A stretch of 30,200 nucleotides of DNA from IMG/VR virus record IMGVR_UViG_2778261160_000004, one strand, 5' to 3'. Positions 21,493 to 24,482 of this stretch are shown piece after piece; the stretch's first letter is position 1; every line of letters begins with the position of its first letter. The notes beneath the pieces were generated by a model. It had not been told where the DNA came from. It worked only from the letters and a program-made list of their open reading frames with translations, and ran no database searches. The position numbers were made by a program, and so were the translations under genes. The stretch comes from a virus. Its lineage: Duplodnaviria; Heunggongvirae; Uroviricota; Caudoviricetes.

Positions 21493-21987
21493 ATGGATCG
21501 AGAGTTAAAAAATCTGACGCTGAATATCAGTCAACTGGCGGCATTGTCAGGTGTACATCGCCAGACTGCTGCGGCAAGGCTGCAAAATCTACCCGTTGCA
21601 GGGGGGCATGAAAGCAACCTCAAGCTTTATCGGGTGGTTGATATTGTGTCGGCATTTCTGGCATTACCACCGCCGGTTGCAGAAGGCGAAATGGACGCGC
21701 ATGAGCGCAAAGCCTGGTATCAGTCTGAACGTGAGCGTCTTAAGTTCGAACAGGAAACGGCACAACTCATTCCGGCCAGTGATGTCAGACGGGAGTTTGC
21801 CATCTGGGCAAAAGCGGTCGTGCAGGTGCTGGAGACATTACCGGATATTCTTGAACGTGACTGCGGTCTGCAGCCTGCCGCTGTGAGCCGTGTTCAGTCC
21901 ATTATTGATGATCTGCGCGATCAGATAGCCCTGCGGGTGACTGAAGCAGGTGCGGATGATGAGGAGGAATTACAGCAGGAGGAGTAA
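21493..21987 (+). CDS. nohQ: Terminase small subunit (Nu1-like)
   Basis: 164 aa from ATG 21493 (GGAGCGGGT upstream). N-terminal HTH-like region, acidic C-terminus. Stop overlaps the start of the terminase-large-like ORF. Confidence 0.75.
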
Positions 21988-24482
21988 TGCTGAATCAGGA
22001 AACCGCAAAGGCAGCACGAACCGATTCAGGTTATATCCTTCGCGCACCGAGACGAATGCGGGTTGCTGATGCCGTTGCTCAGTATATGCGGGTGCCTATG
22101 GGGGCAGGGAACTCAGTCCCGTGGGATCCGCTGGTGGCACCGTATGTTATTGAGCCTATGAACTGCCTGGCCTCGCGTGAATACGACGCAGTGATATTTG
22201 TTGGCCCGGCACGAACCGGCAAGACTATCGGCCTGATTGACGGCTGGGTGATTTACAACGTGATTTGCGATCCTGCTGATATGCTGATCATTCAGATGAC
22301 GGAGGAAAAAGCCCGCGAACACTCCAAAAAACGACTCGCCAGAACGTTTCGCGTCAGCCCGGAAGTGGTCAGTCGCCTGAGTCCGAACAAAAATGACAAC
22401 AACGTTTATGACAGAACATTCCTTGCTGGCAACTACCTGAAAATCGGCTGGCCGTCAGTCAATATCATGTCTTCATCAGATTATAAATGCGTGGCGCTGA
22501 CGGATTATGACCGTTTTCCGGAAGATATTGATGGTGAGGGGGATGCCTTCTCTCTTGCCTCAAAACGTACCACCACATTTATGTCCAGTGGTATGACGCT
22601 GGTGGAGAGTTCCCCCGGCAGGGATGTGAAGGATGTGAAATGGCGACGGACTTCACCGCATGAGGCTCCACCAACCACGGGGATCCTGTCGCTCTATAAC
22701 CGTGGCGATCGCCGTCGCTGGTACTGGCCCTGTCCACACTGTGGTGAGTATTTTCAGCCCTGCGGCGATGTGGTTGCTGGTTTCCGTGATATTGCCGATC
22801 CTGTGCTGGCAAGTGAGGCGGCTTATATTCAGTGTCCTTCCTGTTCAGGACGGATTTTGCCTGAACAAAAACGCGAGCTGAACGGACGTGGGGTCTGGTT
22901 ACGGGATGGTGAATCCATCAATGCAGATGGCAGTCGTTATGGTGATCCCCGGCGTTCACGTATTGCGTCATTCTGGATGGAGGGTCCGGCAGCTGCTTAT
23001 CAGACACTCTCGCAACTCGTTTACAAACTGCTTACTGCAGAACAGGAATACGAGACAACCGGAAGTGAAGAGACACTCAAGACGGTTATCAATACCGACT
23101 GGGGATTACCTTATCTTCCCCGCGCCAGCATGGAGCAACGAAAAAGTGAATTGCTTGAGCAGCGGGCAGAGCCAGTTCCTTCCCGCAGTGTGCCGGATGG
23201 CGTTAATTTCCTTGTGGCGACAGTGGATGTGCAGGCGGGACGTCATCGCCGTTTTGTGGTTCAGGTAACGGGCTATGGCAGCCGTGGCGAACGCTGGATT
23301 ATTGATCGTTACAACATCACGCAGTCATTGCGCGGTGACAGCGACGGGGAGAGCCAGCGAATTGATCCGGCCAGCTACCTTGGCACGGGGCTGTACTGGA
23401 TAGCCGCCAGTATCAATATCAAACCGGGCCATGATTATTACTTTTATATCCGCAGTGTGAACACCGTTGGCAAATCGGCATTCGTGGAGGCCGTCGGTCG
23501 GGCGAGCGATGATGCGGAAGGTTACCTGGATTTTTTCAAAGGCAAGATAACCGAATCCCATCTCGGCAAGGAGCTGCTGGAAAAAGTCGAGCTGACGGAG
23601 GATAACGCCAGCAGACTGGAGGAGTTTTCGAAAGAGTGGAAGGACGCCAGTGATAAGTGGAATGCCATGTGGGCTGTCAAAATTGAGCAGACCAAAGACG
23701 GCAAACATTATGTCGCGGGTATTGGCCTCAGCATGGAGGACACGGAGGAAGGCAAACTGAGCCAGTTTCTGGTTGCCGCTAACCGTATCGCGTTTATTGA
23801 CCCGGCAAACGGGAATGAAACGCCGATGTTTGTGGCGCAGGGCAACCAGATATTCATGAACGACGTGTTCCTGAAGCGCCTGACGGCCCCCACCATTACC
23901 AGCGGTGGCAGCCCTCCGGTATTTTCCCTGACATCAGACGGAAAGCTGACCGCTAAAAATGCGGATATCAGTGGCAGTGTGAATGCGAACTCCGGGACGC
24001 TCAACAACGTCACGATTAATGAGAACTGTCAGATTAAGGGGAAACTGTCAGCCAACCAGATTGAAGGTGATATTGTCAAAACGGTCAGCAAGTCTTTCCC
24101 CCGCACGAGCACTTATGCCAGTGGCACCATCACGGTAAGAATCAGTGATGATCAGAAATTTGACCGGCAGGTCATGATACCACCAGTGTTATTCCGCGGT
24201 GGTAAGCATGAGAATTTCAACAGTAATAACCAACAGTCATACTGGTATTCAACCTGCCGGTTAAGAGTGACCCGCAATGGTCAGGAGATTTTTAATCAGT
24301 CCACGACGGATGCTCAGGGCGTATTTTCCTCCGTTATAGATATGCCTGCCGGACAGGGGACGCTGACACTGACATTCACCGTATCTTCATCAGGAGCGAA
24401 TAACTGGACACCAACAACCAGTATCAGCGATCTGCTGGTTGTGGTGATGAAAAAATCCACAGCAGGTATCAGTATCAGCTGA
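21987..24482 (+). pseudogene. Chimeric in-frame ORF: terminase large subunit (gpA-like) N-terminal portion fused to the C-terminal part of tail host-specificity protein J (deletion scar)
   Basis: Residues 1 to about 445 are gpA-like (Walker A GPARTGKT; [10 protein letters not shown] and WIIDRY segments parallel lambda gpA ACPHCGEEQ and WLIDRQ). From about [40 protein letters not shown]… to the end it tracks the lambda J C-terminus. Junction near 23300-23390. Confidence 0.7.

Follow-up and report, generated by a model that had tools for sequence, protein, structure and literature searches.

A terL–J fusion in a Qin-type Escherichia coli prophage as a probable deletion scar with its left end at a recombination hot spot of the terminase gene

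The 831-aa open reading frame (ORF) at positions 21987–24482 (+ strand) of the 30,200-nt stretch of DNA analysed here, hereafter the window, joins the 5′ part of a terminase large subunit gene (terL) to the 3′ end of the tail-tip gene J, and we are highly confident in a single account of its origin: it is a pseudogene-type scar of a deletion in a Qin-type prophage, in frame by chance and with its left end at a hot spot of terL. That left end is not random, as it falls on a nucleotide-precise recombination hot spot within the terminase gene. A first-pass annotation had already recognized one 831-aa ORF that is gpA-like and then J-like; the ORF listing and Pfam domain assignments agree, and the present analysis adds that the fusion is limited to one lineage, that its reading frame is consistent with chance and that its left breakpoint is recurrent.

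The ORF is a single uninterrupted frame in the ORF listing and connects residues 1–464 of a GpA-family TerL in frame to J residues 765–1132, with 464 TerL and 367 J residues summing to 831 (Table 1). Its N-terminal part contains a complete GpA_ATPase domain (PF05876; residues 41–304 of the fusion, profile positions 2–247 of 247), with the P-loop GPARTGKT present in the translation, followed by only the first portion of GpA_nuclease (PF20454; residues 326–448, profile positions 1–116 of 294). The J-derived part begins within Ig_J_second (residues 460–517, profile positions 47–104 of 105) and continues through Phage_Tail_Tip (residues 544–671) to Ig_GpJ_C, the receptor-binding C terminus of J (residues 708–831), and its matches to PF09327 and PF12421 are almost full-length. 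The ATPase-like N-terminal domain and the receptor-binding end of J proposed at first reading are thus both recovered by Pfam, though the joint cuts the two domains that flank it, the TerL nuclease and the second Ig/FNIII domain of J, in mid-domain. Two observations that could have overturned the reading, a C-terminal half unlike J or a hidden stop or change of frame, were also looked for: J domains are present in that half, and neither a stop nor a frameshift separates the two halves in the ORF listing, the Pfam matches or the base-level comparison.

Set against functional parents, the TerL portion retains the entire N-terminal packaging ATPase domain and lacks a complete endonuclease and C terminus: only about the first 40% of its nuclease domain remains, and residues 465–700 of the 700-aa intact protein are missing. 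The J portion, residues 765–1132 only, has lost the parts from which the tail tip is built, namely the N-terminal hub domains and the first FNIII domain. It begins halfway through the second FNIII/Ig domain, keeping the C-terminal half, and continues with helical shaft, central fibre and receptor-binding domain, following the domain order described for J (PMC11101478). The same holds relative to phage lambda: the N-terminal part matches the Pfam ATPase and nuclease families of gpA but lacks some 60% of the nuclease domain and everything beyond it, whereas the C-terminal part aligns to residues 763–1131 of lambda gpJ but is without the first FNIII domain and any hub domain. Among structures, the J part is near-identical to chain J of PDB 9wca ('A8 gpJ 713') from chain residue 59 to the end, and its receptor-binding domain is closer to that A8 gpJ (810 bits) than to lambda J (586 bits).

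Table 1. Coordinates of the fusion, its junctions and the surrounding prophage features in the window.
Feature	Position	Strand	Basis
Integrase, left end of element	20–1315	-	
DUF1441 gene, 164 aa, in the position of the small terminase subunit	21493–21987	+	Pfam; gene call in 100%-identical contig
terL′, nt 1–1391 of a 2,103-nt GpA-family gene (aa 1–464)	21987–23377	+	Identity to intact terL; Pfam; 118UI alignment
CGGCCAGCT, left arm of a perfect 9-bp inverted repeat of intact terL	23368–23376	+	Repeat search; 118UI locus L005, 21382–21390 / 21435–21443
Deletion junction, GCTA in both parents (4-nt microhomology)	23374–23377	+	Base-by-base comparison
′J, last 1,105 nt (J nt 2295–3399, aa 766–1132 and stop)	23378–24482	+	EC43 gpJ identity; Pfam; PDB
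Terminator-like hairpin with T run, just 3′ of J stop	24500–24519	+	Consensus scan only
lom′, first 170 nt of Ail/Lom gene; 56-aa ORF	24549–24719	+	Comparison with relatives
Second deletion junction, lom nt 170 to stf nt 1425, TA microhomology	24717–24718	+	Comparison with EC43
′stf, side tail fibre gene lacking first 1,424 nt	24719–26319	+	ORFs; Pfam; comparison
tfaQ-like tail fibre assembly gene, 191 aa, intact	26319–26894	+	Pfam Caudo_TAP; RefSeq tfaQ in relatives
pinQ-like serine invertase, 196 aa, intact; marks right arm	26992–27582	-	Pfam Resolvase and HTH_7; RefSeq pinQ in relatives
Truncated ydfJ, right end of element	28917–30200		

Both parents of the fusion can be traced at the nucleotide level. 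Nucleotides 1–1391 of the ORF are 100% identical to intact 2,103-nt terminase genes encoding 700-aa proteins in many E. coli, and positions 23370–24718 of the window match the 3′ end of EC43 gpJ and the start of lom with 99.7% identity. The full-length relative, a prophage of E. coli 118UI preserved from integrase through side tail fibre (locus L005, with terL at 20001–22103 and J at 34427–37825), is collinear with the window at 99.4% identity up to position 23377, where the comparison jumps by 15,329 bp (21392–36720 of that locus). Missing relative to 118UI are the 3′ end of terL, a small head gene, the portal gene, the ClpP-protease/capsid fusion, the head-tail joining genes, the tail tube, G/T, tape measure, M, L, K and I genes, and the first 2,294 nt, or two thirds, of J. 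A gap of this kind in an otherwise collinear comparison bears out the original interpretation of the locus as a deletion scar from which portal, capsid and tail genes have gone.

A base-by-base comparison with the terL and J parents narrows the switch, placed at first at about 23300–23390, to the four nucleotides GCTA at 23374–23377. With the breakpoint marked by a slash, the terL parent reads GATCCGGCCAGCTA/TCCGG, the J parent ACAGCCCGCTA/CCTTGG and the window GATCCGGCCAGCTACCTTGG; given a parental terL with the TAC CCG variant, the shared stretch would grow from GCTA to the 6 nt GCTACC, and around the junction GCCNGCTA matches at seven of eight positions between the parents. TerL codon 464 (TAT) and J codon 765 (TAC) both specify tyrosine and lie in register. 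An illegitimate deletion mediated by the GCTA microhomology took out 15.3 kb between terL nt 1391 and J nt 2295, and the two reading frames happened to be joined in register. The comparison is compatible with loss in one step or in several.

Could the junction instead be an artefact of draft assembly, with head and tail genes really present in the prophage? Positions 11987–30200 of the window are 100% identical to contig NLOH01000002.1 of the E. coli assembly GCA_002230265.1, which is indeed a draft, and the encoded protein (RefSeq WP_089644080.1, named 'terminase gpA endonuclease subunit') is found on just one further contig, from an assembly of run SRR3989635 that perhaps derives from the same isolate. 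However, the identical junction was produced by two different assemblers, the 4-nt overlap is far shorter than any assembler's k-mer, the contig runs in both directions through collinear Qin genes into ydfJ/ydfI, and analogous junctions at the same terL nucleotide are present in finished genomes from several laboratories; an artefact is accordingly an explanation to which we give almost no credence. What the occurrence data do establish is the rarity of the true deletion allele: WP_089644080.1 is the sole member of its 90%-identity cluster, and a 160-nt probe spanning the junction found it in none of 5,426 complete E. coli genomes.

The surroundings of the scar identify the element. Finished genomes collinear with the window carry the RefSeq gene names cspB, cspF, cspI, essQ, rrrQ, rzpQ, gnsB, tfaQ, pinQ and ydfK, which thus designate a Qin-type lambdoid prophage; the packaging genes are preceded by cold-shock and lysis genes, the right arm carries pinQ–ydfK and a truncated ydfJ adjoins the element, and by these sequence features the window belongs to the Qin type, inserted at ydfJ in a single E. 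coli lineage. It shares its chromosomal site beside truncated ydfJ and its flanking and internal genes with Qin (Kim) of K-12 and its variants, which likewise decay through internal deletion of the morphogenesis block, but its deletion end points differ from those of the Qin variants of other strains and are private to its lineage. In K-12, we take Qin to retain just a small-terminase remnant beside stfQ. Other strains carry different deletions at the same Qin locus: terL nt 459 is joined to gene I in EC21Z-137 and terL nt 1522 to J in PK8276, while CFIAFB20180540 keeps terL and the portal gene and has its protease gene joined to stf. The morphogenesis block is thus undergoing repeated, independent loss, as is typical of decaying prophages.

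The right arm carries a second lesion. Relative to EC43, 1,918 bp are gone between lom and stf, a loss that takes in the greater part of lom and stf up to its nt 1424; the 56-aa lom′ ORF stops at a TAA made by this second junction, and the longest ORF of the stf remnant starts at an internal ATG at 24865 and encodes 484 aa, with no earlier start in the remaining frame. This smaller deletion, with its TA microhomology, came either before or after the one joining terL to J. Devoid of portal, capsid and tail genes, the prophage is unable to make particles, so that the earlier attribution of its cryptic state to the fusion event stands insofar as loss of the head and tail genes is sufficient; it needs amending in that the lom–stf deletion is also present.

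Whether the chimeric protein is made, and whether it could do anything, must be considered separately from how it arose. The suggestion that it could in principle be produced from an in-frame junction is reinforced by retention of the native terL start, its AGGAGG ribosome-binding site and its 1-nt overlap with the stop of the upstream DUF1441 gene; if the late genes are transcribed, that start could give rise to a 92-kDa chimera. A promoter consensus scan gave no signal above chance near the fusion, and its transcription would need the late promoter and antiterminator. Such a product would be without the nuclease and C-terminal part of terminase and without the hub that anchors J in the tail; neither parental function is therefore to be expected, and the chimera is very probably without function. 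The J part, on the other hand, covers a portion that others have expressed as a soluble receptor-binding fragment, the gpJ713 construct, which begins 52 residues upstream of the J fragment in the fusion (PMC11101478); a stable, receptor-binding product is thus conceivable from sequence.

A more ambitious alternative would treat the chimera as a domesticated functional gene, for instance a J receptor-binding module with the terminase ATPase as its body, acting against incoming phages by blocking receptors or poisoning their terminase. An intact ORF with its ribosome-binding site retained, the completeness of the J helical shaft, central fibre and receptor-binding domain, and the many other in-frame TerL–J fusions in E. 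coli (about 20 such ORFs in a protein search) would all fit this picture. Against it, the allele is private to one lineage, with its one-member protein cluster and absence from the complete genomes offering nothing like the conservation across lineages that a domesticated gene would show; fusion points vary between alleles and cut domains arbitrarily; the fusion protein matches none of the protein models of known defence systems; and it has no promoter of its own above chance. A frame-blind DNA search recovered eight junctions at the window's terL site, only two of which (the window and a metagenome allele) read through, the remaining six stopping after 0–57 codons; chance alone predicts one third in frame, and there is no excess of in-frame over out-of-frame junctions. 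Since an out-of-frame majority is invisible in a protein database, the 20 or so in-frame fusions found there are not evidence of selection. We consider domestication very unlikely, and conclude from a private allele, domains cut midway, two of eight frame-blind junctions in frame and the lack of a defence match that the in-frame state of this deletion scar is probably fortuitous, with no sign of selection.

Where the frame of the scar looks accidental, its left end does not. Junctions were collected from BLAST matches, from scans of viral and metagenome contigs for the sequence pattern, and from a protein search whose matches were traced back to their DNA. They include at least 17 distinct ones, from other E. 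coli genomes and metagenomes, that end terL at the same nucleotide (±2) and continue into varied partners: the portal gene (two positions), the tape measure gene (one junction), J (eight junctions at seven positions, two of them sharing a partner site), lom (one junction), stf (at least four positions) and, in one junction, an unidentified partner. In these junctions terL ends in CCAGC followed by T, TA, TAT or TATC; in NMBU-W12E19, for example, terL ends in GATCCGGCCAGCT, one base from the end used in the window, and J resumes about 215 nt further on. Left of the break site terL reads GATCCGGCCAGC, and the intact gene continues with TAYCCGGAAG. Wherever the parent of the partner is known, the joints have 2–8 nt common to both sides: the tape-measure allele has CAGCT at its joint, within CCGGGCAGCT, which matches terL at nine of ten positions, and an allele joined to J nt 634 has GCTACCCG in common. 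The alleles at the hot spot represent at least three terL 5′ types and differ in haplotype at two polymorphic sites lying 36 and 42 nt away from the break, and several independent origins are therefore likely on the sequence evidence.

The site is marked in other ways as well. In three viral contigs that share one allele, what remains of terL is the part from TATCCGG on, joined to a cro-like gene; either side of the site can thus be the one that is kept. Two contigs (L065 and L068) have intact terL genes containing a patch of about 90 nt with 75–85% identity that ends exactly at the site, between flanks of mostly 95–100% identity. A pattern scan returned ten matches at the site, three of them junctions, against none at three control positions (-150, -100 and +100 nt), and complete genomes with a partial match only numbered 33 in the 160-nt interval containing the site against 2 and 21 in the neighbouring intervals. 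Two minor terL ends, near residues 305 and 428, also seem to recur in the protein search, and the J-side breakpoint of the window (J nt 2291–2295) is itself reused by an allele joined to terL nt 1194. A scan of species-representative genomes gave one match, in the MAG of an uncultured proteobacterium.

An end fixed to the nucleotide that can be kept on either side, numerous partners sharing short homology with it, and a conversion patch on one side only result from a site-specific nick or break, or from a replication block. Deletion hot spots with one end fixed at the nick site of the M13 origin or at Ter sites have reportedly been described by Michel and Ehrlich and by Bierne et al., and the terL site resembles them in having one end fixed to the nucleotide and many partners, here each with 2–8 nt of microhomology to the fixed end. 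It differs in that a nicking enzyme, an origin or a Ter-like site was not found in terL, and to our knowledge none is known there. As a refinement of the scar interpretation, we lean slightly towards a deletion begun by a site-specific break or nick at about terL nt 1390, the end of which would then have been joined to J by microhomology; candidate agents are a nuclease encoded by a rival phage or mobile element, cleavage of a structure formed by a short inverted repeat, and a barrier to replication. Not only do the constant terL end with its different partners, the allele retaining the opposite side, the divergent patches and the counts from both surveys favour such a break, but near-matches to the site's 9-mer are not in excess downstream (12 against a mean of 23), so that an excess of microhomology partners had to be discarded as the source of the recurrence. 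Weighing the other way, searches of the site and its vicinity turned up no intron, insertion sequence or nuclease gene, part of the recurrence could reflect successive deletions within related lineages, and no description of such a break site in terminase genes was found in the literature.

Structure at the site offers one lead. The left arm of a perfect 9-bp inverted repeat of intact terL (Table 1) ends exactly at the breakpoint, which also speaks for a site-specific break; its partner arm, AGCTGGCCG, lies 44 nt downstream in the intact gene and is deleted in the window. The predicted fold at the site is modestly better than that of shuffled sequence (z = -2.1), a weak hairpin that counts against this route, and hairpin-directed cleavage at the inverted repeat is an unproven candidate.

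Several further candidates were tried and rejected. Pin invertase was dismissed, as no hix-, gix- or pix-like site lies near tfa–pin or at the junction, and so was pseudo-cos cleavage, with no lambda cosN-like sequence in the window and a presumed cos region (21250–21330) that is unlike the terL site. Degradation by RecBCD limited by Chi does not fit, since the nearest correctly oriented Chi is 780 nt to the left and the 20 kb on the other side contain none. A scan for an insertion sequence or IS200/IS605-type element inserted behind the TTGAT 10 nt upstream matched nothing but a point variant, and no homing-endonuclease gene lies beside the patch allele, in which terS, terL and portal are contiguous (contig L068). 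For type IIS and type III restriction sites, read by eye from the sequence, the cut distances do not fit.

In its strongest form, the proposal is that the terL of E. coli lambdoid prophages has a nucleotide-precise break site, AGC/TA/TCCGG (terL nt 1389–1393; 23375–23377 in the window), that is cut by an unrecognized agent and repeatedly seeds deletions that disarm prophages, the fusion in the window being one product. As agent, a site-specific nuclease or nickase from a rival phage or mobile element would come into question, as would a structure or a replication block. We advance this version tentatively and think it rather improbable in full.

The fusion itself is ordinary biology, a textbook case of a prophage turning defective and new only as one more allele. 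It does carry a caution for annotation, as the RefSeq name 'terminase gpA endonuclease subunit' has been given to a chimera that lacks most of the nuclease and contains a third of J. The hot spot may carry more weight: if inactivation is truly channelled through one site in a packaging gene, prophage decay in E. coli would not be purely random erosion, and the cutting agent would be a new player in phage–phage or phage–host conflict.

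The point at which terL is broken in the window is a nucleotide-precise recombination hot spot of that gene: at least 17 distinct deletion junctions terminate at it, its other side is kept in one allele, and a conversion patch carried by intact terL genes stops there. The 20-mer GCGAATTGATCCGGCCAGCT is also present in an apparently unrelated gene on many of the metagenome contigs (L023-L051), which are taken to be soil-derived; the flanks on those contigs bear no resemblance to terL, and the shared 20-mer is probably a chance match. Further end points are reused among E. coli TerL-J chimeras (proteins P0003, P0007-P0010 and P0015-P0022), with terL ends near aa 305 and near aa 428, each joined to three partners, and a J start at aa 772-774 joined to two different left partners; a J start at aa 765 is common to the window fusion and the fusion protein P0005.

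Coordinates of the features discussed, in the window unless marked L005 (the full-length relative prophage of E. coli 118UI)
Feature	Position	Details
terL hot spot	23374-23377 (L005 21389-21392)	Loci L002, L009-L012, L018, L041, L054-L062, L066/L070/L072, L065/L068
Second deletion	24549-24865	lom nt 170 to stf nt 1425; TA microhomology
Presumed cos region	21250-21330	Upstream of the DUF1441 gene
J receptor-binding end	23378-24482	
Cargo block	8640-11690	GC 30-33%
Immunity region, repressor side	5903-6572	

Chi sites occur once each at terL nt 144 and nt 612, and in the intact relative none is found in either orientation throughout the 20 kb that make up its head and tail region (L005 20612-41391). 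The presumed cos region consists of GGCTGTCA/GGCTGTCG units repeated four times in tandem, followed by a very GC-rich stretch, and the lambda cosN sequence is absent from it. In the stf remnant left by the second deletion, an internal ATG is the first start codon.

The 118UI prophage is otherwise collinear with the window but shows no similarity to the repressor side of its immunity region, which indicates a module swap there. It also carries a DUF4209 gene where the window has the low-GC cargo block; the latter encodes a protein with a SMEK domain, for which PADLOC has a matching restriction-enzyme-type model, as well as a methyltransferase-like protein and one unknown protein, and may represent a defence or moron island. 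Finally, the receptor-binding end of J is nearly identical to a solved chain (PDB 9wca, 'A8 gpJ 713'); its resemblance to lambda J is clearly lower, so the receptor that J recognizes here may not be the one used by lambda.
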